The translations under genes were made by a program, and so were the position numbers. Positions 31,350 to 54,059 of a DNA stretch of 64,000 nucleotides are shown here, one piece after another. The notes under the pieces were generated by a model. The model was not told the origin of the DNA. It searched no databases and saw only the letters and a list, made by a program, of their open reading frames with translations. Within the stretch, counting starts at the first letter, position 1, and every line of letters starts with the position of its first letter. This DNA is from Candidatus Parcubacteria bacterium (lineage in GTDB: Bacteria; Patescibacteriota; Saccharimonadia; UBA4664; JBIOIQ01). Location: NCBI GenBank assembly GCA_963718875.1, contig OY970378.1, positions 68,396-132,395 of the forward strand. Reading direction: 5' to 3'.

Positions 31350-31392
31350 GTTTTATAGAGTCTTTAGAATCCGTAACGTCCTAAAGTAGTTC
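31350..31392. terminator. hairpin between convergent genes
   Basis: CCGTAACG-(21 nt)-CGTTACGG inverted repeat between the DUF721 stop (31347) and the minus-strand stop (31392). Confidence 0.3.
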
Positions 31393-32870: not shown

Positions 32871-34045
32871 AGTACTCCCGGTAACTTTAGAAATGTGGAA
32901 ATTAAATTGGGCTGAGGGTCAATATAGTGCGTGCGCTCGGATTGGTCTTCGGTATTGGTAATCATAACGGAACTCATTTGAAAGTGGAGGTGTGGTGGGG
33001 TGCCTTCGGCGCAGGCAGACGGGCCAATAGTGCCTAGTTCTGTCCCGGCTGTTACTTCTTGTCCGTCGTGAATCTTAATAGACCCAGGTGACATGTGGGT
33101 GTAATAGTAATAAATGTTGTCAGTTCCCAAAATCTGCACCCTTGGTACATTTGTGCTTCCGGTACAAGTGGTGTCGACGGCTCTTATAACTGTACCGCCA
33201 ACAGCAGCCACAACTGGGGTGCCAATGGCGTCGAATATATCGGCCGCCCGGTAGTCGTGGTGACAGCTAGTGGGACTGTCGAAACACCAACCTCCAGCCG
33301 CCTTAATGGATTCTTGGGTGGTTTTTAGCGGAAATGTAAAATCGCCGCTAACCCCAAGTCCACCGCTGCAGGTGGGAGTGGTTCCTGGTGTAGGCGTGCT
33401 TACTGAAGCATTTGTGCTGCTTGTGGAGCTAGCATATAAATCATAGGCTTGTTGCGCATATTTGACGCGATCTTCAAAGTGAGCTCGGGCAGGATCTGGT
33501 CTTTCAAAACCGTCCATAAAAACCTTTGTGGCATCCCTTACTGTCGTTGTGCTTTTAAGGGTTGTTAAGGTTTCCCCATAGTCTTCGCTTAGTTCTTTCC
33601 ATAAAAAACCCAATTGGGGCTCGAGGGTGTTTACTGGCTTACTAACTGATTGGGCGTAGGCCACTAGTTTTTCTTGTCGCGATGGGAAGGTCCATTGGGC
33701 TATGCCAAAGCCTTCGTGTGGGTAGGGGTTGGGGTCTCCTTTGTGATTAGGGTTTTCTTGGGCAGTTGGGTCAATGATGCCGGCGCCTGATTCCCAGCGG
33801 ATGTTTCCTACTATGCCGGCGGATTGTTCCGGAGTTAGCCCTTGGCTGACAAAATATTTAAACGACGTTTCAATAGCGTCTGAGCCAATAAAAATTCCAG
33901 TGTCCTCCACGGTTTTACAGCGTTTTTCAGCATTATAATAAATTGCGTCGTAGTCGACAGATATTGGTACGTCGGCCAGAACTTGGGCTGGGAGCAAACC
34001 GATTAAAAGTGCCAATATAAGACGTCGTTTGATATAGGTTATCAT
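32867..34045 (-). CDS. secreted bifunctional cell-wall hydrolase: lysozyme-like domain + M23 (LytM) peptidase
   Basis: Signal peptide; GIVGNIRWESG...EGFGIAQWTFPSR resembles the phage-tail-type lysozyme family. C-terminal HHDYRAADIFDAIGTPVVAAVGGTV...THMSPGSIKIHDGQEV...PPHLHFQ is an M23 peptidase (HxxxD ... HxH). Confidence 0.6.
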   Translation of the reverse strand: MITYIKRRLILALLIGLLPAQVLADVPISVDYDAIYYNAEKRCKTVEDTGIFIGSDAIETSFKYFVSQGLTPEQSAGIVGNIRWESGAGIIDPTAQENPNHKGDPNPYPHEGFGIAQWTFPSRQEKLVAYAQSVSKPVNTLEPQLGFLWKELSEDYGETLTTLKSTTTVRDATKVFMDGFERPDPARAHFEDRVKYAQQAYDLYASSTSSTNASVSTPTPGTTPTCSGGLGVSGDFTFPLKTTQESIKAAGGWCFDSPTSCHHDYRAADIFDAIGTPVVAAVGGTVIRAVDTTCTGSTNVPRVQILGTDNIYYYYTHMSPGSIKIHDGQEVTAGTELGTIGPSACAEGTPPHLHFQMSSVMITNTEDQSERTHYIDPQPNLISTFLKLPGVL

Positions 34046-34048
34046 AGA

Positions 34049-36679
34049 TTAACTTCCGGTTACCGACCAGTGCCAAGGTTCGTTGGGAAGCAAGCCCTTA
34101 AGCCCATAGGTCCCAGCATTTTGTGATAACCAGGCAAAGCATTGATCTCCCCTGGACACTAGGCTGCCATTGCAGCTGAAGTCGATGGCGAGTCCCATTT
34201 GGTGGTTTGATTTACCTGGTGGGGCTACCTCTGCCCCACCTGAATCTCCGTTAAAAAGGTCCTGTTGGTGTTGCATGGTACGGAAGGTGCTGGTAGCCGC
34301 AATAGGTAGGTTGGCCGCTTTGGCGGCTGTTGCCAGGGCCAGGAAGGCTCCTGAGGCTCGCGAATTAACTAAGGCTAGGCCGTTGGCGCCGTTGATGTAG
34401 TATGGATCCCCTGGCGAGCTTTCTCTACTGCTACTCGCTAGGTTGGGGAGGGTGCAAAGTTTGATTTGGATGGGCGCCTCATTGTGATAGCCAGTATGGT
34501 TGCCGACTTCATTGGTTCCGGGAGAGCAGCCAATATTATCCGAGGGCTGGAAAACAGTGTTTAAATCAATTGTTCCACCAGCCGTAGTGCTGCTGCCGCC
34601 TACACCCGCAGCTGTAAGAAGAGGGTTTTTGTTTTTTAAACGCATAATGCCATGGATAACCATTTGGTCGGCTTTATATTGGCCGTAGCGTTGGGCGTCA
34701 ATGTCGCCTGCAAGGTTGTCGCATTTAGAGTTTGGGCCATCAATAATTCGTTGGGCGTAATCCTCAGAACTGCCGCCGTAGCACTTGTCATACTTACTCT
34801 TGAATGTTGCCAAGTTAGCTTCAATGTACTTGGCGTTTTCAAGTACTGGCCAGGTGGGAGCGTTGAGCGGAATCCCTACAAATGGTTGGCCAGTTACCGG
34901 GTCAACTGGGTCGGCCGCAAAGGCAGTTGGGGGTGAAACGGTGGCTAGGGCAAGCCGTCCGCTAGATAGTGCAAACTTGGCTGGACTAAAAATGGTCCCA
35001 AAAAAGTGGTTAATTTGCGCCAACATTCCGGAGGGTGATGATGGAATGGCAAACAAGGATTGGGTAAGTACGGAGCGAGGGTTGTTGGTATCAACTAGGC
35101 GCCAGGCAAGCCCTTTTTTCTTATCTAGAGCCAATCGCTCTTGGTGGATGACGGTTTCAAGAGCAACGTTTTCTGCAGGGGTGAGTTGTTTGCAACCGGC
35201 GCTGAAACAGGCGTTGTCGGCAATTATTTTGGTGCCTCCAGACATATAGTTGCCCCAGGCAAGTGGGCTGGCATTGGCTGATATGGCGGTGTGGGCCATT
35301 TGGGAAACTACGTGTACAGCCAAAGCTTTGCCGGCGATTCCAGCAAAAACTACCGCCCCGCCCGCTACAATCGATCCGACTACAGCTCCAACAGTGACGT
35401 TAACACCCGGAGTAAGAACAGCTCCTACTAAAAGCACTACTCCAGCGCCCGCTACCGCAAATTGCACGCCGGGCTTTAGGATGTAGGAACAAGCTTCTTC
35501 AATTTTAGGAATGCCTAAAAAGAAATTGAGAGCCTTGCCAACATTACCACCCGGTGGAGTGTTGGTTGGCTTGGCTTCATCACTAAGGCCTGGGCCGGTA
35601 ATCGGTTGCCCTGAAGCTTGCTGCGCGCCAGCGCTGTTTACAAAAGATTCTTGGCTGTTATCGAGCTTACTAGCAACGGCGCCAATGCCCGCTAATGGAA
35701 CTTGTCCTTGTTTTTGCCCATCGGCCCAAGCGTAAACCGACTCAGCGGCTTTTACGAGGCCTTCGGCCTTGTAAGCAATATAGGCTTTTTTGGAGGCACC
35801 CCAAATGTCTATGGCAATGCAGGCGATGGTCACTTTTGAAAAAATACTCAGGGCTTTACCAGTTGATTCAATTAACCTGGTAGCCGTGTTTTCAACCACA
35901 ACTTTGGGGTCACCGCCGTCTTGTACACCCTTTTTTGTTTCATCAACTGTGTCTTTAACCTCAGCGTCTGGAATTCCGCCTGGTCCCTTGCCTGGATCGT
36001 CAACTTTTGACTGAAGATCTTTGTCGACCGCCGCTTTTATGTCCGCGTCTGGTTTGGTGGTGTCTATGCTCGCTACCGAACGGTCTCTGACTTTGAATCT
36101 TGAATCGGTGTCGGCTCCTGGTGAACCCGATAAGTCTGATTTCATGTATGCGTCAACGTCGGCCTGGAGTTTTATTCGTTCCGGCGAGTCAAGATCAACT
36201 GGCAAGGGACCTTCGCCTTTAGCTTGAGATAGTTGGAGGTCCAGCGGGGCTTCTTTGGGTGCTGGGGCTTGACCTGCTTTTCCGGCTGGCACTGCTCTAG
36301 CGGCTTCCAGCGAGGCAGCAATGCGTTGGGATACAACTCGATTAAATTTGGCAAAGCGGTAAGAAATAAACAGCTCTTTTACGTGGTTAAGCTTAAACAA
36401 AAACAAGAACATAAAAAACAATATAAACGGTGCTAGAATTCCAATAATGCCGCCAACGCCAGCAATCATTTTCCAGCGTTTACTCAAGCCATTGATTTTG
36501 CCCTTCATGTTTTGGGCTTTCCCTTTGGATGATGCGCCTAGGCCAATTCCGTTTGCGCTTCCTCCGCCTCCGGGTTGGCTATCTTGGGCAAACTGATCGC
36601 GTGCGTCGTTTGAGGCAGTTTGTGGGGCCGACTCGTCTTGGGCGGTTGTTTCGTCTTCTGGTAGGGTACCCAGTGCCAT
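34049..36679 (-). CDS. large membrane protein with C-terminal M15 (VanY/LAS-type) peptidoglycan peptidase domain
   Basis: 876 aa; TM helix near residue 70, long Asp/Lys-rich linker, a Gly/Ala/Val-rich hydrophobic block, and C-terminal SNHQMGLAIDF...EPWHW characteristic of peptidase M15. Confidence 0.6.
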   Translation of the reverse strand: MALGTLPEDETTAQDESAPQTASNDARDQFAQDSQPGGGGSANGIGLGASSKGKAQNMKGKINGLSKRWKMIAGVGGIIGILAPFILFFMFLFLFKLNHVKELFISYRFAKFNRVVSQRIAASLEAARAVPAGKAGQAPAPKEAPLDLQLSQAKGEGPLPVDLDSPERIKLQADVDAYMKSDLSGSPGADTDSRFKVRDRSVASIDTTKPDADIKAAVDKDLQSKVDDPGKGPGGIPDAEVKDTVDETKKGVQDGGDPKVVVENTATRLIESTGKALSIFSKVTIACIAIDIWGASKKAYIAYKAEGLVKAAESVYAWADGQKQGQVPLAGIGAVASKLDNSQESFVNSAGAQQASGQPITGPGLSDEAKPTNTPPGGNVGKALNFFLGIPKIEEACSYILKPGVQFAVAGAGVVLLVGAVLTPGVNVTVGAVVGSIVAGGAVVFAGIAGKALAVHVVSQMAHTAISANASPLAWGNYMSGGTKIIADNACFSAGCKQLTPAENVALETVIHQERLALDKKKGLAWRLVDTNNPRSVLTQSLFAIPSSPSGMLAQINHFFGTIFSPAKFALSSGRLALATVSPPTAFAADPVDPVTGQPFVGIPLNAPTWPVLENAKYIEANLATFKSKYDKCYGGSSEDYAQRIIDGPNSKCDNLAGDIDAQRYGQYKADQMVIHGIMRLKNKNPLLTAAGVGGSSTTAGGTIDLNTVFQPSDNIGCSPGTNEVGNHTGYHNEAPIQIKLCTLPNLASSSRESSPGDPYYINGANGLALVNSRASGAFLALATAAKAANLPIAATSTFRTMQHQQDLFNGDSGGAEVAPPGKSNHQMGLAIDFSCNGSLVSRGDQCFAWLSQNAGTYGLKGLLPNEPWHWSVTGS

Positions 36680-36680
36680 A

Positions 36681-38549
36681 CTAGGCTACCTCGCTGCCTT
36701 GCGTGTAGCGTTCTTCAATTGATGGCGGATTGCTTTGGATCAAGTCGGACTCCGTGGCGGATGCTAAGATACGAATAATAACGTGGTTGAGGCCAGCAAA
36801 AAACAAACCTTCCCCTACTGGGAACTGGCTTAAACGGGCTTTTTCAGCTCCCGTTAGCTTAAAGGTGTCGGCTACAATATCTACGGCTGATGGGGCTTGT
36901 TTTAAAAGTAATTGCAAAGACGAGTTGGCAACTACAGCCCGGCCTAGCCTGGAACTAAGGAAGTCTTCGACGTCTTGGGAAATTGTAGTTAGGCCTAGTG
37001 AATACTTGCGGGCGCGCTTGGCGATTGAGAACATAAAGTTGGCTGAGTCGTCGTAGCGCATTAATTGCCAGGCTTCATCGACAATCAAAATACGTTTGCG
37101 CTTGTCGGATTTAACCTTATTCCAGATGTAATTCAGGATAATGTACATGGCGACTGGCCGCAGCTCGTCTTCGAGGTCGCGAATGTTAAACACTACAAAT
37201 TGGTTATTGATGTCGACATTTGATTGCTGGCTAAAAATACCAGAAAACGTACCGGTAGTGTATTTACGCAACCGTTGGGCTAGTGCTGGTCCATTACCGC
37301 TCATGCTTTCGAGCATACTATAAAGGTCATTCATGGTTGGCGGTGTAGCAGCATGGGTTAGAGGATCATTAGTAATGCCAGCTTTGGCGTAGGTGTTAAT
37401 GATGGCCACATCTAAGTCAGCGTCTTCGGCCGGAGTAAGTGCCCCATAATTGGCTTGGCTGGCGGTTTGAGTGCCAGCTTGGGCTTGGGCGCCACCCATC
37501 ATCAACCGCAGTAACCCATGGAGAGTAATAATATTGGCCCGGAGAGAATTATCGGCATCTTCGTCATCGAGAACCCGTGGCAGGTCAAATGGGTTGAGGC
37601 GAGTATCGGAGGCTAAGGAGACGCGCAGGTAGCTCCCCCCTACGGCATCACTGAGGGTGCGATATTCGTCTTCTGGGTCAATAATTATGACTTCAGTACC
37701 AAGCATTAGTGAGCGCAAAGCCTCTAGTTTTACAGCAAAACTTTTACCAGCGCCAGATTTGGCAAATACTACCATGTTGGCGTTTTCCAGACTAAAGCGG
37801 TCAAACAATACTAGTCCGTTGTTGTGGCGGTTAAGTCCATAAAGCACGCCTTCGTTGCGTGATAACTCGGTGGAGGTAAAAGGAAAACAGGTAGAAATAG
37901 CGCCGGTGCTCATATTGCGGCTAATCTGGAGTTGGTCGCTAGCAATCGGCAAAGTTGAATTAAAGGCTTGTTCCATTTGCAGAGAAGCCGGCTTGGTGTA
38001 GACAAGTGATTGGCCAAACATGCCTTCGATTTTGCGTTGCATGGTGGTAAGTTCTTCTAGGCTATCAGCGTACATTGTGACATAGAGGCCAAAGCGGAAA
38101 AAACGTTCCTCCCCAACTTGTAGTTTGTCGCGTAGCTCTTCGGCATCGACTATGGCTGCCTCTAGCCCCGGGTCGCGTACCCGGCCTTTTTCTTGGTTGA
38201 TGGTGTAGGAAGCTTGCAGCTCCCCTACCTTGCGGCGTAAATTGTTAAGGACCACTTGGCTCTCAACTGGGTAAATGTTGATACTGATGTCGAGTATTTC
38301 ATCGAGGTTAATGAGAGGGGAAAGCCAGCCGGTAAAAATTTGGCGGGGGTAGCCGTAAACGTACAACGTTCGGGCAAAGCGCTTTCCCAGCTGAAGGTAG
38401 GACGACTCAATTTTAAGAGACGGCGGCGCAATGAGGTCACGCATAGTAACAATTCCCTGACGGTAAACTGTCTCGGCTTCTTGCTGATCGCGGGCTTTTT
38501 GGCCTTCAGCCAGCATCACTGGATCGACTTTTGGTTTAAATAGACCCAC
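36681..38549 (-). CDS. virB4: VirB4/TrbE-family type IV secretion ATPase (ATPase domain ORF)
   Basis: Walker A VVFAKSGAGKSFA, Walker B ILIVDEAWQLM, plus conserved TISQDVEDF / FAGLNH C-terminal motifs. Confidence 0.85.
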   Translation of the reverse strand: MGLFKPKVDPVMLAEGQKARDQQEAETVYRQGIVTMRDLIAPPSLKIESSYLQLGKRFARTLYVYGYPRQIFTGWLSPLINLDEILDISINIYPVESQVVLNNLRRKVGELQASYTINQEKGRVRDPGLEAAIVDAEELRDKLQVGEERFFRFGLYVTMYADSLEELTTMQRKIEGMFGQSLVYTKPASLQMEQAFNSTLPIASDQLQISRNMSTGAISTCFPFTSTELSRNEGVLYGLNRHNNGLVLFDRFSLENANMVVFAKSGAGKSFAVKLEALRSLMLGTEVIIIDPEDEYRTLSDAVGGSYLRVSLASDTRLNPFDLPRVLDDEDADNSLRANIITLHGLLRLMMGGAQAQAGTQTASQANYGALTPAEDADLDVAIINTYAKAGITNDPLTHAATPPTMNDLYSMLESMSGNGPALAQRLRKYTTGTFSGIFSQQSNVDINNQFVVFNIRDLEDELRPVAMYIILNYIWNKVKSDKRKRILIVDEAWQLMRYDDSANFMFSIAKRARKYSLGLTTISQDVEDFLSSRLGRAVVANSSLQLLLKQAPSAVDIVADTFKLTGAEKARLSQFPVGEGLFFAGLNHVIIRILASATESDLIQSNPPSIEERYTQGSEVA

Positions 38550-38562
38550 TGGGAACCTCCGC

Positions 38563-38667
38563 GAATAATGAATAATGAATCATGAATAAAGGGAAACTGT
38601 CTTGCGTTTTGACCCTATAATTCTTAATTCTTAATTCGTGATTCTTAATTCGTGATTCGTGATTCGT
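38563..38667. repeat. inverted arrays of AT-rich heptamer repeats (GAATAAT-like / TRATTCK) in the virB4N-virB4C gap
   Basis: GAATAATGAATAATGAATCATGAATAAAG (38563-38591) and TAATTCTTAATTCTTAATTCGTGATTCTTAATTCGTGATTCGTGATTCG (38627-38667) are reverse complements of the same 7-bp family. Confidence 0.7.
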
Positions 38668-38674
38668 TTGCATA

Positions 38675-39433
38675 TTATTGTCCAAATGGTCCTGCTAATG
38701 GTGGTGGCGGGGCTTGACCTACGCCCTTGGTGACGGCAGCTGTTTGGAGTTGGCTAGCGTCAATCATTTTTTGGTTAGGGGCAACGTCTGGGTTGTAGGA
38801 AGCATAGTAGAGGTCAATGAGCTCTTGGGTATTGAGCGGGATGGCTCTAAGTCCCATTTGCGCGAGCCCCGCTGATACTAGCTGTACGCGTTGGGCTAGT
38901 TCGGATTTGGCTTTCTCGAAATCAGCGGCTGTAACAGTTATAACGGGTACCGGTTTAAAGATATTGGCGAGTCCTGAAGCCACATTGATTTTTGAAGGGT
39001 CAAGATGGGGGTAAAACGGCACCACAATAAAAAACAACTTGTCCATAATGTTGACTTCTTCGATCAAGCCCTTGATGTTAGCTATGTAATCGTCCATAAG
39101 CTCGGCTAAAAGTGCATTGCCTTGGTCTGAGCGAAGCTTACCAAGGTTGTCGATGTAGCTATCGAGGTCAATTTTTTGGGATTTAATTACAATTTGAAGC
39201 GGGAAATGTAAAGAGTTTAAAAATCCTTGATAAGCATATTCTACGGCGTCTTGTTCTTGCTGGCTCATCAGGTCAAAATTGATGGCGCTGGTCAAAATGA
39301 CTGCGCGCAAACTGCCATCGCGCAACACCACAACTCCATCTTTAATTTCAGATATCAGGAGGCTGCCTTGGGTGCTTTTGGTGCTGGCAGTTACAGGATG
39401 GGCTGGTTGGTTGATGGGGGGAGTTTTTGCCAT
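38675..39433 (-). CDS. VirB4 N-terminal-domain protein (separate ORF)
   Basis: 252 aa; LRDGSLRAVILTSAINFDLMSQQEQDAVEYAYQGFLNSLHFPLQIVIKSQKIDL resembles the N-terminal domain of VirB4/TraC-type proteins. A 125-bp gap to the ATPase ORF is filled by heptamer repeats. Confidence 0.5.
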   Translation of the reverse strand: MAKTPPINQPAHPVTASTKSTQGSLLISEIKDGVVVLRDGSLRAVILTSAINFDLMSQQEQDAVEYAYQGFLNSLHFPLQIVIKSQKIDLDSYIDNLGKLRSDQGNALLAELMDDYIANIKGLIEEVNIMDKLFFIVVPFYPHLDPSKINVASGLANIFKPVPVITVTAADFEKAKSELAQRVQLVSAGLAQMGLRAIPLNTQELIDLYYASYNPDVAPNQKMIDASQLQTAAVTKGVGQAPPPPLAGPFGQ

Positions 39434-39573
39434 TAAACATTAACCTTAGTTAAGTAAGAAACAAGCTACAAGATACAAGAAACAGATAGCTTCAATATTC
39501 AAATTTTCAAACAAGTGGAAAGTTTTTGTCGCTTGGGTATTTGTATCTTGTCTTTTGTGTCTTGGAACTTGCC

Positions 39574-40599
39574 CTAGGCTGCGGGCTGATCTGGATGTAT
39601 CGCTACGGCTTGGCCTTCCACAAGTACTGCCGGGCTGGTGGCCTGGGCGGCAATTTGGCTCACCTGGCTCACCTTCAGGTCGGGCGTCTCCATGGCTCTC
39701 TTTAGTATATCAGCAATGGGATTTGTAGTCATCTCGCTTATGTTGGCTTGGGCTGTTTGGACCACGGCTGCAGAGGGTACGATGGCTGGCGGAATGGGTG
39801 CTGACTGCATTACAGCTGTTGGAGCAGTTTCTGGACTGGGCGTAGGAACTGAATTAGGTTGGACTGACAGAGTCGGAAGGTTTTGACTTTGAGTGGGGGC
39901 TGTTGGCTTGGTAAGGTCGCCGGGGTGAGCGTGGATTGGTGAGGGAAGTTCTTCGCGGATTTTTTGCATGACCTCGTCGTGAATACTTTTTTCGGAGTCC
40001 TCAATCAGGACGCTCAAGTTGCGGGCAGACTGATTGTTATCAAGGTCGAGCATGTCGTCTTCCATGTTGACTACGGATGTGGGTCGAATAGGAGCTATGT
40101 CGAGTTCATTGGTCTTTAAACGCCCGTCCAAGTCTATTACCGGATGTTCTGTGGGCTCCTGTACCTCTGGCTGCTTGCTTTCCCATCCCCTGGTATCAAC
40201 TATTTGGGCTAATTTTTCGAGCTGGCCGCGGACTTCGCGTGGGTCGCGGTGGGCTTCTTCGGGTTTGGGCAATGGTTGCTCAATTTTGAACACTTCTGCA
40301 ACATCCTCCTTAAGCCAGATGCGCTGACGAGGCTTAAACCAAAAGTTAACCAGTGCTAAAAAGTAGGCTTCAAATGGCTGGCCCTCACGTTGGTAAAGGC
40401 CAAGCAGTAGCATCATAGCTGTGGGTGGGACTCCAATAAGTACAAAAAGTATTAGGGCTTTTTTGAATATCTGAAAAGTCAGCAGTCCGTAGGCTACGCC
40501 AATAACGGCGTAAATGAACTGCTTAAGGGTTAAAACCCCAATTATCTTATCTTCGGCTTCGACGTCCTGAGGGACTTTATACTGACCCATTAAGCACAA
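39574..40599 (-). CDS. VirB3-like small-membrane-domain protein with long Pro-rich C-terminal extension
   Basis: The first ~100 aa hold two TM helices (LKQFIYAVIGVAYGLLTF / LILFVLIGVPPTAMMLLLG) immediately upstream of virB4, as for VirB3/PrgI; the remainder is an acidic/proline-rich low-complexity tail. Confidence 0.45.
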   Translation of the reverse strand: MCLMGQYKVPQDVEAEDKIIGVLTLKQFIYAVIGVAYGLLTFQIFKKALILFVLIGVPPTAMMLLLGLYQREGQPFEAYFLALVNFWFKPRQRIWLKEDVAEVFKIEQPLPKPEEAHRDPREVRGQLEKLAQIVDTRGWESKQPEVQEPTEHPVIDLDGRLKTNELDIAPIRPTSVVNMEDDMLDLDNNQSARNLSVLIEDSEKSIHDEVMQKIREELPSPIHAHPGDLTKPTAPTQSQNLPTLSVQPNSVPTPSPETAPTAVMQSAPIPPAIVPSAAVVQTAQANISEMTTNPIADILKRAMETPDLKVSQVSQIAAQATSPAVLVEGQAVAIHPDQPAA

Positions 40600-40700
40600 G
40601 TATAACTCATCTTGGTAATGAACTACGAATATTGAATAAGGAATTATGAATGAAGAGACTTGGAGTTGACAAAAGTTGAACGATTTGATAAGTTAAACGT

Positions 40701-40931
40701 ATGAAAACCGTTATACTTTCAAGTAAATACCAAGTGGTTATTCCTAAAGAGATTAGGGAGTCATTGAATCTTAAGCCTGGGCAAAAACTGCATGTGCAAA
40801 AGGGTAAGAACGGTGCTGTGGAGATTCAAACAAAATCGGCTTTGGATGAGTTATATGGTAGCGTGCCAGGCGTGTGGGGAGATGACGCAGTGGCTTACAT
40901 TCGGAAACAACGCGATGATTGGGAAGGCTAG
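40701..40931 (+). CDS. vapB: AbrB/MazE-fold antitoxin (VapB-like)
   Basis: 76 aa, MKTVILSSKYQVVIPKEIRESLNLKPGQKL swapped-hairpin motif. Confidence 0.65.
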   Translation: MKTVILSSKYQVVIPKEIRESLNLKPGQKLHVQKGKNGAVEIQTKSALDELYGSVPGVWGDDAVAYIRKQRDDWEG

Positions 40932-40964: not shown

Positions 40965-41390
40965 TTGCTGATAGCTCTCGACGCCAATATTTTTATCTAC
41001 GTTCTTGAACGTGACTATCAGTTTGGGCCGCAGGCTTTAGCTATCTTAAAAGCAGCCGAGTTGGGTACAATCGATGCTGTTACCTCTGAGCTGGTGTATC
41101 TGGAAACACTGGCAAACAGTAAACTGCAGGCTAGCGATGTTAATCGCATCAATCGATTGCTGGAACTTTCAGGAGTAGTATTTGAGCCAATTGAAAAACC
41201 GGTTGTTTTGGAGGCCGCAAGATTAAGGCGCATTTATGGGATTAAAACCCCCGACGCCATTCATATTGCCAGCGCACTTGGTGTAAAGGCTACCCATTTT
41301 GTAACCAACGACAAGCAGTTGTTGAGGCTCAAGATTGCTGGACTTGAAATAGTTTCTCTCGATCAGGCTCTTTTGTTGAGTGAAGCATGA
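40965..41390 (+). CDS. vapC: PIN-domain toxin VapC
   Basis: 141 aa; LDANIFIY ... ETLAN ... TNDK acidic residues spaced as in PIN domains. Confidence 0.65.
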   Translation: MLIALDANIFIYVLERDYQFGPQALAILKAAELGTIDAVTSELVYLETLANSKLQASDVNRINRLLELSGVVFEPIEKPVVLEAARLRRIYGIKTPDAIHIASALGVKATHFVTNDKQLLRLKIAGLEIVSLDQALLLSEA

Positions 41391-41490: not shown

Positions 41491-43572
41491 TTAAGGGGTT
41501 CCCGGCAGTCCTTGGTGTTCGATCTTACCGGTGTCAGCAATGTAGTCGTTAAAGAAGTCAACGCCAGTCATATCCCGATTGTCGAACCTTATGCTTTCTG
41601 CTGCCAAGATATTGTGGAATTCGTTGTCGGTTCGAACCTTATCTTTGAAATACGCAACGAGTTGTTGGTCAACCTTGGAGCGTTGATCAGCTGAACTAGC
41701 GATAGTACGGAAGTTGCTGAGCGCCTTTGATACACGGTCTTTTTTGCCTGCAGCAACGTCGGCTGGGTTAGCATCGGTTCCAACAGGAGCCATGATACGG
41801 TTGAAATATTTGTCGGCACCTGAACCATGGATTGATGCTACCTGAGAGGCGCTTAAACCATCATAGGCAACATGTTTTTTGCCTGGGTTAAGCATAGGAA
41901 TGGCTTGAATGGCTTGGGGCATGACGCCACTAGAGCCCATGCCTCGGAACCAGGTATCAGCTGATTCATTGCCAGTAGGTAGGCCCAAACCAGCAATGTA
42001 CTCACCTTTGTAATTGTCTCTCGTAGGATCAAAAATTTGAGCATGAATTTTATTTAGCTCAACGTTGCCGCCTTGCTTAGCAATTTGACCTATAGCTTGA
42101 GCTTGCATGGCTTTGGTAATTTTTTCCTTTTTTGTTCTACCATCTAGCCCGGTGTAAATAAAATCATTGCCGTGTCCTGCCAAAACAACTTTTTTCATTA
42201 AGTCATCATTACTAAGCCCAAGATCATCGAATCTGATGCCCCAGTCTTTCATTTGGGCGCCAATGGCAGCGTCATAGCCTTTAGCTAGTCGACGTCGACC
42301 AGGTTGTCCTAGGCCGGGTTGCCCAGCTCGGGCTCGTCCCAATGCGCGTTCCCATTTATGGCTCGCGTCACGTTGGGCAATAAAGCCCTTTTCCTGACGT
42401 GATTCTTTGATATCTTTCTTTAACTGGCCACCAAGAAAGCCTTTGGCACGATCCTGAGAGCCAAACACCCTACCGGAAACAGTTCCCATAATGCCACTGG
42501 CGATCTTGAAAGTTGCTGGTATGGCCAGGAACACTAGGATGGGGATGAGGCTGGCAAAAATAACGTTAATTTCGTGCGAGCCAAAAATGCCGTCGGTCTC
42601 GCTAGCAACTCGGGCTAGAAACCCACCGATGGAAAGCAGGATAACAATTAGCGGGTACACTAAAATAACCCGAACCATGTTTTTTACCCACTGCTTAAAG
42701 TAAACTTCGGTGTTGGGCAATACCCAAGCGGCAAAAGCCAGTGGTGAGAGTACAATTAAAACAGCAATAATTAGTTGTCTTAGGGCCAGCGTAAAGAATA
42801 CCCCCAGCACACTGATGATGAATCCACCTAGCATCAAGAGGATGGCCGGCCAGGTCAAAATAACTCCGGCTATGACAGCGGTTAGTCCGGCTATACCAAA
42901 AGTGATTATCGAACCGACATTAAAAATACCGTGAGTTATGTCTTGAGAGGTTCCGGCGGTTGTTCCTAACTGGCTCATGATGCTACCTATGCCGGCACCA
43001 GAAACATTACCGATATCAATGATGAAGGCGGTTACAAAGAAAGATACTTGCACTCCAATGGCGGCAATTATGAGTTTGGGTAAGAGGCTTTTAAGGGCGT
43101 ATGAGCCTTCAGATGAAACCATGTTTCCAAAAATTAAGGCTAGGAAAATGAGGATAAACATTACATCGGCCAAGTTTCGAATAGCTTTCCAAGCTTCGTA
43201 GAGGCCGCTGTCTTGGGTTAGCGGCTTGGTTTCAAGCATATCAATTACGAGCTTGCTAATCTTGGCCACGGTTTCAACGCCAGCATTAATAAGCGGGCAA
43301 ACAATCCAGCCCAAGCCTCCCCCGCTACATGATGGTTTGGTGTAGCTACTAGGGTCGGAATCGCCATTACCGCCGGGAAGAATTGGTGCAGTGCTAGTTG
43401 GGCTTGTAGAAGTGGGTGATGTTGTGGAGGTTGTTCCTGGTGTAGTGGTTGTGGTTGTACCAGTTGAGGTGGTTGCGGGTGCGGTTTGGGCGTACACTAA
43501 GCTCGCTTGACTCATGCAGAGCCAGGCGATAAGTAAGGTGATTAAACCGGTTGCGAACCTTCGAATGGACAT
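41491..43572 (-). CDS. VirB6/TrbL-family polytopic T4SS membrane protein with Thr-rich N-terminal region
   Basis: 693 aa; signal peptide, TTSTGTTTTTTPGTTSTTSPTSTSPTST linker, then six or more TM helices and a C-terminal cytoplasmic domain. Confidence 0.65.
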   Translation of the reverse strand: MSIRRFATGLITLLIAWLCMSQASLVYAQTAPATTSTGTTTTTTPGTTSTTSPTSTSPTSTAPILPGGNGDSDPSSYTKPSCSGGGLGWIVCPLINAGVETVAKISKLVIDMLETKPLTQDSGLYEAWKAIRNLADVMFILIFLALIFGNMVSSEGSYALKSLLPKLIIAAIGVQVSFFVTAFIIDIGNVSGAGIGSIMSQLGTTAGTSQDITHGIFNVGSIITFGIAGLTAVIAGVILTWPAILLMLGGFIISVLGVFFTLALRQLIIAVLIVLSPLAFAAWVLPNTEVYFKQWVKNMVRVILVYPLIVILLSIGGFLARVASETDGIFGSHEINVIFASLIPILVFLAIPATFKIASGIMGTVSGRVFGSQDRAKGFLGGQLKKDIKESRQEKGFIAQRDASHKWERALGRARAGQPGLGQPGRRRLAKGYDAAIGAQMKDWGIRFDDLGLSNDDLMKKVVLAGHGNDFIYTGLDGRTKKEKITKAMQAQAIGQIAKQGGNVELNKIHAQIFDPTRDNYKGEYIAGLGLPTGNESADTWFRGMGSSGVMPQAIQAIPMLNPGKKHVAYDGLSASQVASIHGSGADKYFNRIMAPVGTDANPADVAAGKKDRVSKALSNFRTIASSADQRSKVDQQLVAYFKDKVRTDNEFHNILAAESIRFDNRDMTGVDFFNDYIADTGKIEHQGLPGTP

Positions 43573-43807
43573 TGCGGTACGCTCTTCCTTGTAAGCAAGT
43601 TGACAATTGTGTCAACGATCGCGAGAATACTTTCACGCGAATTACAAAGTATACCACATTTATGGCGCTTATGGAAGAGTTTTATCTGTTGGAAGCACAA
43701 GCGTTTAAGTTTGTGAGAGGAAAACAAAACACAAGCATTTCGAGGGAAGCTCCCTCTTATTGCTTGTGTTTTGTTTTTTGCCTGATCACAAGTCCAGATT
43801 AGACTTA

Positions 43808-46522
43808 TCACGGCGGTGGCGGTGGCGGTGGCGGTGGCGGTGGCGGTGGCGGTGGCGGTGGCGGTGGCGGTGGCGGTGGCGGTGGCGGTGGCGGTGGCGG
43901 TGGCGGTGGCGGTGGCGGTGGCGGTGGCGGTGGCGGTGGCGGTGGCGGTGGCGGTGGCGGTGGCGGTGGCGGTGGCGGTGGCGGTGGCGGTGGCGGGCCT
44001 GATACAGAAGGTGGGGGCGCCTTAAGAGTTTTTGATGCACGGTCAACATGGTTGTCAAGGAAGTCTTGTAGGCTCATTTCATTACCGTTGAGAGTAATTT
44101 TGTGTGCCCGGGTGTTAACAGTAGGGTCTGACTCAAGAGCTAGAAGTGCTTCTACGCCCTTGCTTGAAAAGTTGGTTCTAGAAGTGGAATCTTCCATGAC
44201 TTGAGCGATTTGACCCATAAGGGGGTCAATTCTGCCTTCACTTGCAGCAAGCTCAACAGCTTCGGCTTGGCGCTCTTTAGAAAAATTGGCAAGCGCTTGA
44301 CCATTGGCTCCTCGGAGTTGCTCGTAGCCGTCAGGACGGAAGCCAGATTTTGCAGCCCAAGAACCATTGGATCCTTCGTGAGCATTCGACCATAGTTGCG
44401 CGGCTTTTGTTGCGTTGATCCTTCCCCCAGTTTTTGCTTTCAGCTTATTTGGGTCAAATTTACCATTTGCGCCTTGAAGACCTGCAGAAGTATGTACCAC
44501 TGCTCCAGTTTCGTCTTTCCAGTCGCCGCCTTGCATAAGTTTGGCGTATTCTGAGCTCCCTCCATTGCGCATTAGTCTTTCAAGAGCTGCTTGATACATT
44601 TGATCGTCCATTTTGGTTCCATCTGGTAATTCTCCCTTGGCCAAGGCTAAACCTAAGGCCACGTTGTCCGGGGTAAGACGCTTAAGCGTCTCGTCGTGGT
44701 CTTTGCGTCTAGCGGCCTCGGCGGCACCGATACTGGCATTCCTTCTTCGTTGGCCTGTCGGCCCATAGCTAAAAGCATTGCCCGATCCGACCCGACCCAG
44801 AACTTTTTTTATGCGGCCAGAGTCTGGGTCGCCCATCATAAGAGCGGCTTTTTCTCGGCTGGATTCTTTGGCATTTTTCATCAAGCCATTACTTCTTAGG
44901 CCCTTGCTCATTTTGCTGGCTCTCCCCTGAATGGCGCCGCTGACTGCTCCCATAAGCGTTCCCGAGGCCTTAAGGGTTTTTAATACCAAGAAAAATAAAA
45001 TGATGGGACCTAAGGATGACATAACTTGTTGGATTGGATCGCTTGCATTCCCCACCAAAGCCGGAAAGTCACTAATGATTTTGCCAGCGTAAATAAGAAT
45101 TACGATCATAGGGAACATTAGTAGTAGCTTAATTAAATTGGTGGACCACATTTTGAATAACTTTTCGGTATTGGGTAGTACCCAGGCAGCAAGTGCAATC
45201 GGAGACATTAATACCAAGAGATAGAGAATTATTATTCTGGCTTCGAGAGTAACAAATACTGCCAGGATCGAAACTAATGCACTTGCTAGTAAAAGTAACA
45301 AGGGTATTACAAGCCCTACAGCAACAGCGGCTGTGCCGGCAACAGCACCAATAGCCACAGCTTCTAGCCCTCCAAAGAATTGAATGGTACCACTATTGCC
45401 GCTACTAACGTCGTTTAAGGTGCTAAGTGGGGCTAAGAGTCCGCCTATGCCTCGTCCTAAAACATTGGTAAAGTCGATGGCAAAGGCCATAAGTACAAAT
45501 GAAAATTGCACCAAAATAACTGATAGTACTAGTCGTGGTAAAACTTTTTTAATGGTGTAGGCGTCTAAACCTAGGGCGTTACTTCCCAAAATAGCAAAGA
45601 ATATTAAGACAAAAAACACGTTGGCAATGTTTCGAATAATTACCCAGGCTTGGTAAACTGTGGTTGCGTTGCCACTACTATCTTCTGATGCCAGCGGGGC
45701 TGATTGGAGATAATTCAAAATTCTTGTTTCCAAGAAATTGACGGACCCTGTGGCCATGGAAATTAGCGGGCAAAGAATCCAACCTAACCCGCCTTGAATG
45801 TTGCATTTATCTTTAATGGAACCTGAATTTGAGGAGGCAAGACTAACTGAAGCATCGGGCGGCGTATTGCTGATAAGGACGGTACGCGTATCATTTGATT
45901 CGCATGCGTAGGTATTAAAAAATCCCACAATGGTTCTTTGAGTTTTCCTAGGGGTGAAGCGGCCAGTTTCACTGTTAGGGGCGGTTTGGACGGTGCTATG
46001 GCAGTCGCCACTGTTTTTTTGGCCGTAGATATTGGGTTCTGCTGAATTGTTTTGAAAAATTTCGGCCCCAATTTCATCATGTTGTCCGGTTTTAGCCCCT
46101 TTTAGCTCAAAATCGTAATTTGTGAAGGCCGGAGTTAAGGTGTCACCACTGGTCCTATAAAAGTAGACAGATGCTCTGGCTACTTCGCCCATTTCGAGCG
46201 GACGCTCACCGTCATATATGCAGTCAGAGTTGGCGGGATTGGAATGAAAGGAAAATAGGGTGGCTTTTGAGCTAGGATTTGGACTGCCCTCAAACCGTCC
46301 AATCCAGTTTGAGCAGGTTTTGTCGCCATTCAAATAATATTGACGTCCACTATCACCCAGAATGTTATCGATATAGACATCGTTGCCAACCTTGATATGG
46401 GCAGCGTCCAGCCAGGTGGCGTCAGCTGCATAAGCTGGAGTGGTAGGTAGGAGGACGGCGATCATGGGGATCAACACCAATAACATAAACGCTAATGCGC
46501 TTTTTTGCCTCAACCGGTTCAT
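43808..46522 (-). CDS. VirB6/TrbL-family polytopic T4SS membrane protein with large N-terminal ectodomain and ~60-residue C-terminal polyproline tail
   Basis: 904 aa; signal peptide, ~220-aa extracellular domain, multi-TM core paralogous to 41491-43572, C-terminal KAPPPSVSG(P)n encoded by the microsatellite. Confidence 0.65.
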   Translation of the reverse strand: MNRLRQKSALAFMLLVLIPMIAVLLPTTPAYAADATWLDAAHIKVGNDVYIDNILGDSGRQYYLNGDKTCSNWIGRFEGSPNPSSKATLFSFHSNPANSDCIYDGERPLEMGEVARASVYFYRTSGDTLTPAFTNYDFELKGAKTGQHDEIGAEIFQNNSAEPNIYGQKNSGDCHSTVQTAPNSETGRFTPRKTQRTIVGFFNTYACESNDTRTVLISNTPPDASVSLASSNSGSIKDKCNIQGGLGWILCPLISMATGSVNFLETRILNYLQSAPLASEDSSGNATTVYQAWVIIRNIANVFFVLIFFAILGSNALGLDAYTIKKVLPRLVLSVILVQFSFVLMAFAIDFTNVLGRGIGGLLAPLSTLNDVSSGNSGTIQFFGGLEAVAIGAVAGTAAVAVGLVIPLLLLLASALVSILAVFVTLEARIIILYLLVLMSPIALAAWVLPNTEKLFKMWSTNLIKLLLMFPMIVILIYAGKIISDFPALVGNASDPIQQVMSSLGPIILFFLVLKTLKASGTLMGAVSGAIQGRASKMSKGLRSNGLMKNAKESSREKAALMMGDPDSGRIKKVLGRVGSGNAFSYGPTGQRRRNASIGAAEAARRKDHDETLKRLTPDNVALGLALAKGELPDGTKMDDQMYQAALERLMRNGGSSEYAKLMQGGDWKDETGAVVHTSAGLQGANGKFDPNKLKAKTGGRINATKAAQLWSNAHEGSNGSWAAKSGFRPDGYEQLRGANGQALANFSKERQAEAVELAASEGRIDPLMGQIAQVMEDSTSRTNFSSKGVEALLALESDPTVNTRAHKITLNGNEMSLQDFLDNHVDRASKTLKAPPPSVSGPPPPPPPPPPPPPPPPPPPPPPPPPPPPPPPPPPPPPPPPPPPPPPPPPPPPPPPPPPPPPP
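43816..43995. repeat. perfect (GGTGGC)n hexanucleotide microsatellite, ~30 units
   Basis: About 180 bp of uninterrupted GGTGGC repeats; on the minus strand the TrbL-like ORF frame reads CCA CCG = Pro-Pro. The other frames give the artefactual RW/AV/HR ORFs in the track. Confidence 0.95.
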
Positions 46523-46631: not shown

Positions 46632-47336
46632 ATGAAAAAGTTAACAGCTCTAATCCCAGTCCTTGCTTTTGCAGTTGTAGTCACATTGTTATTTAGTCCA
46701 CGCGCTGCATTGGCGGATGAAAAAAGTCATTTGTATGGTAACTCAATATCGGAGTGCCGACCCGGGAGCTATTTGTTGTCTGAGCAAGCTGGGCCGGCGC
46801 TCGGAAATTCCTGTTTAACGTTGAGCGATGATAGGACTACTTATTCATCCGCGCCGGCGTCATCCGGTGCTTGTCCAGACAATAGTGAGGGCGCCAGGGG
46901 ATTTAAAGCCAGGCAAGGCACCGATCCAGCGCGATGTTTTTATTTTCAAACCGGTACACTTGAAGTTTCAACCCCTTCTTTATCTACGCCCACGCCTCAA
47001 GCCGGGACATCTCAGGCGTTTCAAGGAGGCTGCAATAACGGCGGCGTCAAGCTAGGGATTAATATTAACTCGAGTGATAATAATTGCGCCGGGGGCAATG
47101 GCGTAAACCCAATTTACGCTTATTTGCGCAGTATTATCCGTTTTGTATCGGGGCTGTTTGGGATAATTGCGGTATTAATGGTAATTCTGTCTGGTTTTCA
47201 ATACATGACATCCGCTGGCAGTCCAGAGGCTGTAAAAAAAGCTAAAAGCCGCTTGGCAAATGTAGTCTTGAGCATTATTGTATTTGCCATGATGTTTGGC
47301 ATCCTTAACTACTTGATTCCGGGAGGGGTAATTTAA
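46632..47336 (+). CDS. VirB2/TrbC-like pilin paralog 1 with extended Cys-containing N-terminal domain
   Basis: 234 aa; signal peptide; C-terminal ~75 aa has the shared two-helix module (IRFVSGLFGIIAVLMVILSGFQYMTSAGSPEAVKKAKSRLANVVLSIIVFAMMFGILNYL). Confidence 0.55.
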   Translation: MKKLTALIPVLAFAVVVTLLFSPRAALADEKSHLYGNSISECRPGSYLLSEQAGPALGNSCLTLSDDRTTYSSAPASSGACPDNSEGARGFKARQGTDPARCFYFQTGTLEVSTPSLSTPTPQAGTSQAFQGGCNNGGVKLGININSSDNNCAGGNGVNPIYAYLRSIIRFVSGLFGIIAVLMVILSGFQYMTSAGSPEAVKKAKSRLANVVLSIIVFAMMFGILNYLIPGGVI

Positions 47337-47683
47337 TGCATGCGTTTAAGATTTTGGCTGCTGCATGCACGCCGGGCGGTAACAATACTAGTTTTTTGTT
47401 GCCAGATCTTTACAAGGGTTTGCGAGGGTCCGACGGTCTCTGCATTACGAGCTTAACCGCTATTGAAGTATTGCTCATGAACATAGTGCAAATAATATTG
47501 GCTTTAGCGGGACTGGCGGCGGTATTCATGGTGATTTTTGCTGGATTTACTTACATTACTTCCAATGGTAACGCTCCCCAAATTACCAAAGCTAAGGATA
47601 CGTTGATAAACTGGGCGTTTGGTTTACTTATAATTATTGGTGCTTATGCTATTGTGGGTCTAGTGGCAGGAGCTTTGAACTAA
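47336..47683 (+). CDS. VirB2/TrbC-like pilin paralog 2
   Basis: 115 aa; signal peptide + hydrophobic helix - GNAPQITKAKDT - hydrophobic helix; start overlaps the previous stop. Confidence 0.55.
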   Translation: MHAFKILAAACTPGGNNTSFLLPDLYKGLRGSDGLCITSLTAIEVLLMNIVQIILALAGLAAVFMVIFAGFTYITSNGNAPQITKAKDTLINWAFGLLIIIGAYAIVGLVAGALN

Positions 47684-47684
47684 G

Positions 47685-47990
47685 ATGGCTGTTGAATTTT
47701 TAGCTCAAGCCCAACAGCTTTGTCGGACTGCGGCTGATTGTGGCCTTCCTAATGTGGCTTTTACCAGCAGTACTTTGGGTCAAATTATTAGCTTGTTATA
47801 TAAGGTGTTGGCGGCCTGCTCAATTTTATTTCTTATGTTTGGGGCCTTTAAATACGCTGCTTCAGGTGGCGACTCAGCGGGTATAAAAAACGCCAAAGAA
47901 ACAATTTTGTACGCAGTTTTTGGCCTGATTATTAGTCTTTTAGCCTTTGTTGCGGTAACATATCTATCGAACAGAGCGGGAGGATTATAG
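47685..47990 (+). CDS. VirB2/TrbC-like pilin paralog 3
   Basis: 101 aa; ...FGAFKYAASGGDSAGIKNAKETILYAVFGLIISLLAFVAV. Confidence 0.55.
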   Translation: MAVEFLAQAQQLCRTAADCGLPNVAFTSSTLGQIISLLYKVLAACSILFLMFGAFKYAASGGDSAGIKNAKETILYAVFGLIISLLAFVAVTYLSNRAGGL

Positions 47991-48394
47991 TGATTAAGCT
48001 AAAATCGGCATTTTTGACATTGCTTGTGGCTGTTGGCCTAGGCGGTGGATTAAGTGTGGTTCTTCCCTCGCTGGCTTTGGCAGCTGATACGCCTTCGCAA
48101 ATTATCACTACTCAAGCCTGTAAAACCAATCCATCTGCCCTTGGCTGCCGTGCAAACGATAAAGTCTTTGGTGCTGGCAGCATATTTAATAACGGCATAG
48201 CCGTATTGATAGGTTTAATAGCTTCAGTCTCGGTGGTGATGGTAGTAGTTGGTGGCTTGCGTTACGTGCTTTCTGGTGGCGATTCAGCTGGTATAAAAAG
48301 CGCTAAAGATACCATTTTGTATGCATTAATTGGGTTGGGTGTGGCGTTGGTGGCGTTTTTGATTGTTGGGTTTGTAATAGGAAGAATAGGATAA
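47990..48394 (+). CDS. VirB2/TrbC-like pilin paralog 4
   Basis: 134 aa, GTG start overlapping the previous stop by 1 nt; VVGGLRYVLSGGDSAGIKSAKDTILYALIGLGVALVAFLIVGFV. Confidence 0.55.
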   Translation: MIKLKSAFLTLLVAVGLGGGLSVVLPSLALAADTPSQIITTQACKTNPSALGCRANDKVFGAGSIFNNGIAVLIGLIASVSVVMVVVGGLRYVLSGGDSAGIKSAKDTILYALIGLGVALVAFLIVGFVIGRIG

Positions 48395-48395
48395 C

Positions 48396-48812
48396 ATGAG
48401 TATTATGAAACGAAGATTTCGAGATTATATTTATACCTCCGCCTTGCTGGCTCCAGCTGTTTTGCTTGGTGGGCGAGCCCTTGCAGTAGATCCCAACTCC
48501 CCTACAGCGCAGGCTTGCACTGGTATTGGCGGTACGCTTAATGCAGCTGGTAAATGTGTGGTCGCTACCTCTAGCGGCAAGGTTGGTGATCTGGGCACAG
48601 CTTTTAAAGCAGTGGCTAACACGCTCATTTTTGTTGTAGGGGCGATTTCGATCATCATGGTTATTATTGGGGGCTTGCGCTACGTGCTTTCAGGGGGTGA
48701 TTCAGCTGGGATAAAGAGCGCTAAAGATACGGTTTTATATGCCCTCATTGGTGTGGGCGTGGCAATTGTGGCTTATGCGCTAGTTAACTTTGTCATAACT
48801 GCAATCACATAA
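48396..48812 (+). CDS. VirB2/TrbC-like pilin paralog 5
   Basis: 138 aa; IIGGLRYVLSGGDSAGIKSAKDTVLYALIGVGVAIVAYALVNFV. Confidence 0.55.
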   Translation: MSIMKRRFRDYIYTSALLAPAVLLGGRALAVDPNSPTAQACTGIGGTLNAAGKCVVATSSGKVGDLGTAFKAVANTLIFVVGAISIIMVIIGGLRYVLSGGDSAGIKSAKDTVLYALIGVGVAIVAYALVNFVITAIT

Positions 48813-48924
48813 TCCAAATTAATTTTTATTATTCTTATGCTTAAATGTTGTTTTGGCCTAGTCAAGCGTTAGCAATTGTGATACAAAGAAACAGTAAACA
48901 AGCCTTTAAGGAGAACTTATTCAA

Positions 48925-49350
48925 ATGACACAAACAATAAAATCGTTGGGTGGTAGGGCAGCTGGTGCAGCCGTATTAATAGCTACATTTGGTACTGGAG
49001 CATATGCTGGAACGCCAGTAACATGTGACCCTACAACAAGTACCGATCCTATTCAAAGCGGCGTAAACTGCAGTCAGCCTGCAGGTAGGGCTGGAAATTC
49101 CCAACTTTTTGGTGGGACCGGATCTATTTTCCAAACTGTTGCTAATACACTTATTTTCATCGTAGGAGCTGTTTCAGTAGTAATGCTTATCATCGGTGGC
49201 TTGCGTTACGTATTGTCGAGTGGTGAAGCCTCAGCTGTTAAGGGTGCTAAAGACACCATTCTTTACGCCATTGTGGGTATTGTAGTGGCTATTCTGGCCT
49301 TTGCGGCCGTATCGTTTGTGACTGGTCGATTTGGCGAGCCTACTGCTTAA
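48925..49350 (+). CDS. VirB2/TrbC-like pilin paralog 6
   Basis: 141 aa; IIGGLRYVLSSGEASAVKGAKDTILYAIVGIVVAILAFAAVSFV. Confidence 0.55.
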   Translation: MTQTIKSLGGRAAGAAVLIATFGTGAYAGTPVTCDPTTSTDPIQSGVNCSQPAGRAGNSQLFGGTGSIFQTVANTLIFIVGAVSVVMLIIGGLRYVLSSGEASAVKGAKDTILYAIVGIVVAILAFAAVSFVTGRFGEPTA

Positions 49351-54006: not shown

Positions 54007-54059
54007 GCAAGATTCGGGAGGGCCCCGAGCGGCCGACATCGCCGCGCATCATTGCAAAG

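Follow-up and report, generated by a model that had tools for sequence, protein, structure and literature searches.

A perfect CCGCCA microsatellite encodes a 62-proline C-terminal tail on a VirB6/TrbL-like protein in a Patescibacteria type IV secretion cluster

The DNA analyzed here is a 64,000-nucleotide stretch of contig OY970378.1 from the ultrasmall Candidatus Parcubacteria bacterium, of the lineage Saccharimonadia (hereafter, the window), and our subject is a perfect hexanucleotide microsatellite at the 3′ end of a gene for a 904-residue VirB6/TrbL_3-like protein. The open reading frame (ORF; 43808..46522, minus strand) begins with ATG and encodes a signal peptide, an extracellular β-rich N-terminal domain, a polytopic membrane core, a hydrophilic C-terminal domain, and a polyproline tail. 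Tandem Repeats Finder delimits the repeat array at 43812..43996 (GGTGGC on the plus strand, CCGCCA on the coding strand), where it extends for 185 bp with a period of 6, 30.8 copies, 100% matches, no indels, and a score of 370. An exact-pattern search places (GGTGGC)30 at 43815-43994; an earlier note on this DNA had recognized the array but set its boundaries one base off, at 43816-43995. All other perfect repeats of period 1-9 in the 64-kb window are at most 22 bp long, which excludes chance as an explanation for the GGTGGC array. The array is an isolated outlier and not a property of the surrounding region, and the same absence of any other repeat longer than 22 bp led us to reject a general microsatellite-instability phenotype for the window.

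Read in the frame of the 904-residue protein, the tract consists of 62 consecutive proline codons (residues 843-904; 43811..43996, minus strand) in strict alternation of CCG and CCA. The tail uses 32 CCG and 30 CCA codons, and the remaining 35 prolines of the protein draw on all four proline codons (9/9/9/8). The tract terminates as CCG-CCG-TGA and not CCG-CCA, with the TGA stop (43808..43810, minus strand) directly after the last proline codon and an in-frame TAA beyond it. Thus, Tandem Repeats Finder and translation bear out the earlier description of a perfect, uninterrupted, in-frame hexamer encoding a polyproline C-terminal tail of about 60 residues. The same description was right that a stop lies near the tract, but the 8 nt that it allowed before the stop include two proline codons. 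The five other frames across the tract hold only ORFs of 69-90 residues, which owe their length to the stop-free repeat itself. We rejected the plus-strand readings (poly-Gly, Val-Ala, and Trp-Arg) because they amount to these repeat-made ORFs, whereas the minus-strand frame continues a 904-residue protein whose first ~664 residues can be aligned with relatives.

The flanks of the tract look like an ordinary gene end. Immediately before it lies a native proline-rich segment, KAPPPSVSG (residues 834-842; 43997..44023, minus strand), reminiscent in translation of the short mixed proline-rich ends of relatives and likely what is left of a short ancestral tail from which the repeat arose. Beginning 30 nt past the stop is a long terminator-like hairpin (43721..43777, minus strand) with 17-bp perfect outer arms, both located exactly in the sequence, followed by UUUUCC. 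The minus-strand RNA of 43700-43815, which includes a smaller upstream hairpin, folds at −46.8 kcal/mol (z −7.8, with 0 of 200 shuffles as stable), and the hairpin fits a genuine end of the gene. Within the tract, the G-rich strand can fold back on itself in many alternative registers (−58.6 kcal/mol, z −10, with an empty centroid). Structure in the mRNA of the tract was considered and rejected, as the C-rich RNA folds worse than its shuffles (z +2.6).

The assignment of the host protein to the VirB6/TrbL family rests on its relatives, its neighborhood, and its predicted fold. The membrane core (residues ~289-525; 44948..45658, minus strand) shows ~7 hydrophobic segments by hydropathy, where at least 5 membrane helices were taken to define such a core; in the alignment it carries the family-invariant residues R429, P441, A443, P450, and W459, and AlphaFold2 (AF2) models it as long helices with pLDDT (AF2's per-residue confidence) of 80-97. 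The C-terminal hydrophilic domain (residues 526-833; 44024..44947, minus strand) is mostly helical in the AF2 model and, from its Lys and Arg (K+R) content, is predicted to be cytoplasmic. The polyproline tail is modeled without regular structure (pLDDT 45-69). The best structural matches of the predicted fold are DotA and TrwI/VirB6, so that the model resembles the VirB6 fold, and comparison of the family profile with the sequences of solved structures gave nothing significant. Neither Pfam nor NCBIfam gives a significant match for the 904-residue protein itself; against Pfam TrbL (PF04610) it scores 9.3 bits (E 1.2) with a cutoff of 25.9. PF19590 was absent from all scans with the Pfam copy used, and it appears among precomputed annotations on 33 of the 48 homologs returned by a database search (the best of them 44% identical). 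Locus tables name PF19590 as TrbL_3, and those of L124 and L126 list TrbL_3 at E ≤1e−5. Combined into a profile, the query and its homologs retrieved 23,192 cluster representatives at E ≤1e−3; the VirB6-like family is very large. We conclude that the label "TrbL/VirB6-like", which the earlier note had proposed, is supported by family, context, and fold, with the query itself falling short of direct profile significance.

A second VirB6-like gene lies next to the first (41491..43572, minus strand). Its 693-residue product is 34% identical to the tailed protein over the membrane core (E 2e−66) and ends in ...HQGLPGTP with no polyproline, so that two VirB6/TrbL_3-like genes stand in tandem and the tract occurs in the pilin-proximal one only. 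Divergent from the tailed gene are six tandem genes for VirB2-like pilins of a type IV secretion system (T4SS; 46632..49350, plus strand), recognized by matches to PF18895 (T4SS_pilin). The pilins measure 234, 115, 101, 134, 138, and 141 residues, the first being about twice as long as the others through an N-terminal extension. The rest of the T4SS cluster (31392..40599, minus strand; Pfam and NCBIfam matches) comprises genes for a PrgI/VirB3-like protein (39574-40599), a TrsD/TraC-like protein (38675-39433), and the VirB4 ATPase (36681-38549), all on the minus strand, together with an 876-residue VanY-domain protein, a lysozyme/M23 hydrolase, and a 492-residue protein not assigned to a family. 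PrgI, TrsD-like, VirB4, and the six T4SS_pilin genes are thus adjacent to the tailed gene. The cluster directly adjoins an origin region (20564-31106) with mnmE, jag/KhpB, yidC, rnpA, dnaA (25074-26462), dnaN, and recF, which puts dnaA, dnaN, and recF at 25-31 kb of the window; cumulative GC skew has no minimum at dnaA.

The gene order of the T4SS cluster is found on two other contigs. L124, a 68-kb metagenomic contig, has two tandem TrbL_3 genes (6806-9022 and 10001-12625), the pilin array, HSP20, recF, and dnaN in matching order, and the order is found again in a Logan contig of sequencing run ERR12037361. T4SSs of Patescibacteria are described as comprising VirB4, TrsD, PrgI/VirB3, VirB6, and multiple VirB2-like pilins, often beside dnaA (PMC12102498). 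The layout in the window matches this description, and we conclude that the cluster is a chromosomal, dnaA-proximal, monoderm-type T4SS typical of Saccharimonadia/Patescibacteria. A virB6 homolog has been reported as essential in Candidatus Southlakia epibionticum, a cultivated Saccharibacterium (Wang et al. 2023, as cited in PMC12102498).

Long proline runs are foreign to the family, and prolines at its C-termini are not. In a diverse sample of 169 family members, the runs reach at most 7 prolines. Proline makes up 4.0% of these proteins overall; its fraction is 1.9% at 200-230 residues from the C-terminus and climbs through 3.5%, 4.7%, 5.0%, and 6.1% to 10.8% in the last 30 residues. About one-seventh of the members finish in a mixed tail rich in Pro, Gly, and Thr (for example ...TPPPPPAPGGNP, ...PTPPQPPTPPPSR, and ...PPPPGPTPPPPPPPGP), and the proline-rich tails of relatives are written in mixed codons. 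The earlier note had named orthologs lacking any proline-rich tail as evidence that would speak against it. Relatives do possess such tails, but these are short and of mixed sequence, with no run beyond 7 in the 169 sequences. The closest homolog (P0001, 44% identical) can be aligned only to residue 664, leaving ~180 residues before the tail that have diverged, which indicates that the end of the protein evolves fast.

Charge distribution suggests on which side of the membrane this end lies. Across the family, successive loops alternate in K+R content (15%, 3%, 19%, and 3%), and the 60 residues past the last membrane segment contain 20.7% K+R. Together with the signal peptide, this pattern favors seven membrane segments with the N-terminus outside and the C-terminus inside, so the C-terminal domain and the tail would be cytoplasmic. 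Such a placement argues against a spacer that spans the cell wall, and we do not uphold the earlier proposal that the tail reaches through the wall.

The same hexamer has expanded elsewhere. We scanned 2.9 million viral contigs and 241 million metagenome records for exact arrays of at least 12 units. The viral contigs yielded 3 sites of 13-14 units, two of them in ORFs read in a Gly-Gly frame and the third ambiguous. The metagenome records yielded 119 sites, mostly on contigs of 60-78% GC, and the longest periodic run was 129 bp (21.5 units). In 42 of the 119 the tract touches the end of the contig, which indicates that short-read assembly truncates such tracts and that the metagenome lengths are lower bounds. 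As recorded, the 185-bp tract of the window is longer than every viral or metagenome tract scanned. Polyproline proteins encoded by CCGCCA in metagenomic contigs lie at L091:2994-6575, L106:2361-6638, L122:1577-4126, L097:10356-11657, and L044:1946-4261, with 26-43 prolines partly encoded by the microsatellite. CCGCCA encodes 39 prolines between the autochaperone and the β-barrel of an autotransporter, 26 in the hinge of an OmpA protein, 37 in a two-partner-secretion exoprotein, and 43 plus 25 in an RTX/FG-GAP protein; in a cytoplasmic AddA-like helicase-nuclease, a run of 30 stops 7 residues short of the C-terminus. Runs of 25-43 prolines in unrelated bacterial proteins indicate that expansion of CCGCCA into polyproline is recurrent and tolerated. 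The phenomenon is known, and the case in the window stands apart in how long the run is, in its lineage and host protein, and in its terminal position. Accordingly, the description of the tract as extraordinarily long stands within the family and the collections scanned, but its kind is not unique, given the 25-43-proline runs that the same hexamer produces elsewhere.

Our preferred reading, which we hold at about even confidence, is that the tract is a tolerated and probably mildly costly slippage expansion of a native short proline-rich tail, and not a purpose-built spacer. The seed was probably the family's usual short proline-rich C-terminus, here ...KAPPPSVSGPPPP followed by the stop. From the CCG-CCG-TGA ending and the KAPPPSVSG segment, the simplest ancestor would be ...SVSGPPPP and a stop, an end that would already have contained two near-identical units (CCGCCA/CCGCCG). 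Replication slippage, with the self-pairing G-rich strand as its substrate, would then have expanded (CCGCCA)n in frame at the very 3′ terminus of one member of the tandem VirB6/TrbL_3-like pair. The strict CCG/CCA periodicity, with no synonymous interruption, points to expansion at the level of DNA and not to selection of prolines one by one. With a unit of 6 nt, a single slip would lengthen or shorten the tail by two prolines and leave the frame intact, as the earlier note had also reasoned. The tract is the last element before the stop and sits on a fast-evolving, probably cytoplasmic domain, so no folded domain would be disturbed and expansion could be tolerated. A polyproline-II helix rises 3.1 Å per residue, and a tail of 62 prolines would measure ~19 nm if fully extended in this form. 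Nothing follows the tract, however, and it therefore cannot space parts of the protein; it could be at most a free rod or a ligand. The idea of a length-variable spacer finds no support on this point, as there is no second domain or motif for the tract to link.

The likeliest consequences of such an expansion would be costs, namely slow elongation dependent on elongation factor P (EF-P) and inefficient termination at Pro-Pro-stop. Runs of proline slow the making of peptide bonds and require EF-P, and YfmR alone, without EF-P, cannot relieve an engineered tract of 20 prolines (PMC12856214). At termination, C-terminal prolines are also said to provoke SsrA tagging (Hayes et al. 2002, as cited in PMC12856214). 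With 62 prolines, the tract contains the run of at least 3 that marks an EF-P-dependent stalling motif; the longest natural run in Bacillus subtilis is 4, and CCG and CCA are the faster proline codons (PMC12856214). We postulate that the costs are softened because only these two codons are used, which are also not prone to frameshifting, and that the tail-less adjacent paralog may buffer any remaining defect or cost. No efp gene was seen among the ORFs scanned in the window.

Several points weigh against the slippage-expansion reading. The copy number is that of the assembly, and variability in length is presumed. Genome, metagenome, and protein collections yielded no close ortholog for comparison of tract length: a scan of genome contigs gave one locus at 32% identity, in a Saccharimonadales metagenome-assembled genome, a scan of metagenome contigs gave none, and no record of the exact 904-residue sequence was found. 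The enrichment of proline at the C-termini of many relatives suggests that the tail may be functional, in which case its expansion need not be neutral. If it is costly, so long and perfect a tract might be expected to be purged from a gene whose homolog is reported as essential in the source cited above. Moreover, if oriC adjoins dnaA, lagging-strand synthesis would copy the G-rich strand, which is prone to hairpins, and such an arrangement should favor contraction and makes persistence at 30 units slightly surprising; since GC skew does not locate the origin, this last argument is itself conditional. Finally, the only other recorded assembly of the locus differs by 93 nt in the gene end/intergenic region (window 43572-44348). 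Exact look-ups found the neighboring paralog and PrgI on record in NCBI, ENA, and Logan, and in the 17,646-bp Logan contig of ERR12037361 the genes from the paralog to dnaN match the window in length and spacing. Upstream of the paralog this contig continues for only 776 nt, and the partial ORF there (210 residues) stops 142 nt before the paralog, compared with 235 nt in the window. No frame of the window has a stop codon at the position equivalent to the end of the Logan ORF, and there is neither a direct repeat 93 nt apart nor a simple deletion signature to account for the disagreement. Guesses at the 210-residue product, made of a C-terminal fragment with 4-20 prolines appended, matched no record exactly. 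Chiefly on account of this unexplained 93-nt disagreement, the exact copy number should not be relied on unless reads support it.

This disagreement bears most directly on whether the tract has been mis-sized, that is, whether the copy number or the assembled tract is an artefact of assembly or a consensus of a heterogeneous population, with a true tail that is shorter, longer, or variable. We regard this as rather unlikely, and it does not exclude slippage expansion. Short-read assembly cannot size perfect tandem repeats beyond the read or k-mer length, as the 42 of 119 metagenome contigs that end inside their tracts illustrate, and the Logan contig disagrees near the very gene end in question. 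On the other hand, the 64-kb window around the tract is contiguous and seemingly part of a 1.19-Mb contig (by exact protein look-up), which is consistent with long reads; the tract's 185 bp are unlike the collapsed length expected from usual k-mer sizes; and its flanks form a coherent gene end, with the proline-rich segment, the stop, and the terminator-like hairpin. Switching of the gene between ON and OFF was considered separately and rejected, since a unit divisible by 3 that lies inside the coding sequence remains in frame at any copy number.

The other explanations assign the tail a function. One holds that it is an adaptive tail of tunable length, which would either give the VirB6-like subunit a stiff rod or tether in polyproline-II form or be bound by a partner protein as a polyproline ligand, with slippage generating functional diversity in length and not an ON/OFF switch. 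We think this unlikely, although the tract is limited to CCG and CCA, the faster-translated proline codons (PMC12856214), and although the T4SS of Patescibacteria serves interaction with the host and already has a diversified tandem set of pilins (PMC12102498). The family-wide rise of proline toward the C-terminus likewise hints that a proline-rich end is useful. An analogy is offered by CagY of Helicobacter, in which in-frame repeat rearrangements tune T4SS function. Against all this, no domain follows the tract to be spaced or positioned, most other polyproline runs encoded by the hexamer are interdomain, those of the autotransporter and OmpA among them, the tail is predicted to be cytoplasmic, runs in relatives do not exceed 7, and perfect codon periodicity indicates expansion of DNA and not long-term selection on the protein. 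A different function would be that of a translational throttle, in which 62 prolines and Pro-Pro-stop tie the output of one paralog to the supply of EF-P and prolyl-tRNA, and stalling, tagging by tmRNA, and degradation set its level relative to the tail-less paralog. That consecutive prolines stall ribosomes and that engineered 20-proline tracts require EF-P (PMC12856214), that C-terminal prolines are reported to induce SsrA tagging (Hayes et al. 2002, as cited there), and that the paralogs stand side by side with the tract in only one would all suit this explanation. We nonetheless give it only a slim chance: the strong hairpin after the gene means that a stall at the 3′ end cannot regulate downstream coding sequence, the codons of the tract are the least stalling of the proline codons, and the window offers no evidence on EF-P, tmRNA, or expression. 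The broadest version, in which the tail is a functional, slippage-tunable T4SS module (either a tether or ligand in the cytoplasm, formed by a polyproline-II helix of ~19 nm, or a throttle gated by EF-P that doses one VirB6 paralog) whose length varies between cells and alters the engagement of epibiont and host, we consider quite improbable.

Compared with known systems, the tract is an extreme case of a familiar kind and not a new kind of system: it is an in-frame coding microsatellite that yields polyproline, the longest found in our scans. With the VirB6/TrbL family, including TrbL_3 (PF19590), the host protein shares a polytopic core with conserved motifs, T4SS neighbors, and a long hydrophilic C-terminal extension; it differs in its homopolymeric proline tail, which no described or sampled member has (longest run 7 in 169), and its own match to TrbL has an E of 1.2. 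"Extended VirB6" proteins with large C-terminal domains include TcpH of pCW3, TraG of F, and RvhB6 of Rickettsia. Proline-rich linkers and hinges of the envelope (autotransporter, OmpA, TonB, and VirB10) share the long proline runs, with 26-43 prolines encoded by CCGCCA in L091, L097, L106, and L122. They lie between two folded domains in the periplasm or at the surface of high-GC diderms, whereas the tail in the window is terminal, links nothing, is predicted to be cytoplasmic, and reaches 62 prolines in a window of 41-55% GC. Its stop directly after the last proline sets it apart from interdomain spacers such as those in L091, L097, and L106.

The contingency loci of Haemophilus, Neisseria, and Campylobacter, which are based on simple sequence repeats, likewise have a perfect microsatellite, of a type deemed hypermutable, in a gene of host-interaction machinery. 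These loci switch ON and OFF, whereas a unit that is a multiple of 3 can change only the length of the tail, so the repeat in the window is no phase switch. In CagY of Helicobacter pylori, a VirB10 homolog, long complex repeats recombine in frame with a demonstrated functional effect. The shared feature is an in-frame repeat number in a structural T4SS subunit; the tract in the window differs in being a 6-bp microsatellite. EF-P stalling motifs and sites of SsrA tagging share with the tract consecutive prolines and Pro-Pro before a stop, on a different scale (usually 2-5 prolines, compared with 62).

If its length is real, the tract is a natural extreme of consecutive-proline translation in bacteria, with 62 residues compared with 4 in B. 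subtilis and 20 in the engineered tract (PMC12856214). Since it occurs in a gene family with a homolog reported, in the source cited above, as essential for the epibiotic lifestyle, it would offer a natural test case for EF-P capacity in reduced genomes, for microsatellite instability in Patescibacteria, and for the tolerance of the VirB6 C-terminus. It also carries a practical warning, as short-read assemblies interrupt such tracts or get their size wrong, which makes copy numbers and nearby gene ends unreliable without spanning reads.

We made several further observations in the window. Between the second VirB6-like paralog and PrgI lies a VapBC-like pair of a MazE antitoxin and a PIN toxin (40701-40931 and 40965-41390, both plus strand), for which the Pfam labels were taken from the collinear Logan contig. 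AT-rich heptanucleotide tandem repeats occupy short gaps between the genes of the T4SS cluster (38563-38589, 38618-38667, 39456-39488, 40616-40651, and 20529-20555). An example on the minus strand reads GAATCAC GAATCAC GAATTAA GAATCAC GAATTAA GAATTAA GAATTAT, and an inverted set, TTCATGA TTCATTA TTCATTA, directly precedes the GGAGG and GTG start of VirB4. RNA structure was rejected as an account of the heptamers in these gaps because their fold does not stand out from that of shuffled sequences (z −0.84). The repeats may act as iterons that bind a protein or as spacers prone to slippage. Toward one end of the window, 53600-63400 holds ~10 small ORFs (100-220 residues) without Pfam matches at a GC of 0.51-0.55, compared with 0.41-0.51 over the first 50 kb, and a tRNA-Arg(GCG) gene (50945-51020) lies just upstream; this stretch may be a foreign or mobile island. 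At the other end, 1-20000 is a long run of co-directional plus-strand ORFs, among them one for an O-antigen-ligase-like Wzy_C protein (17918-19243), and is probably a surface-polysaccharide cluster.

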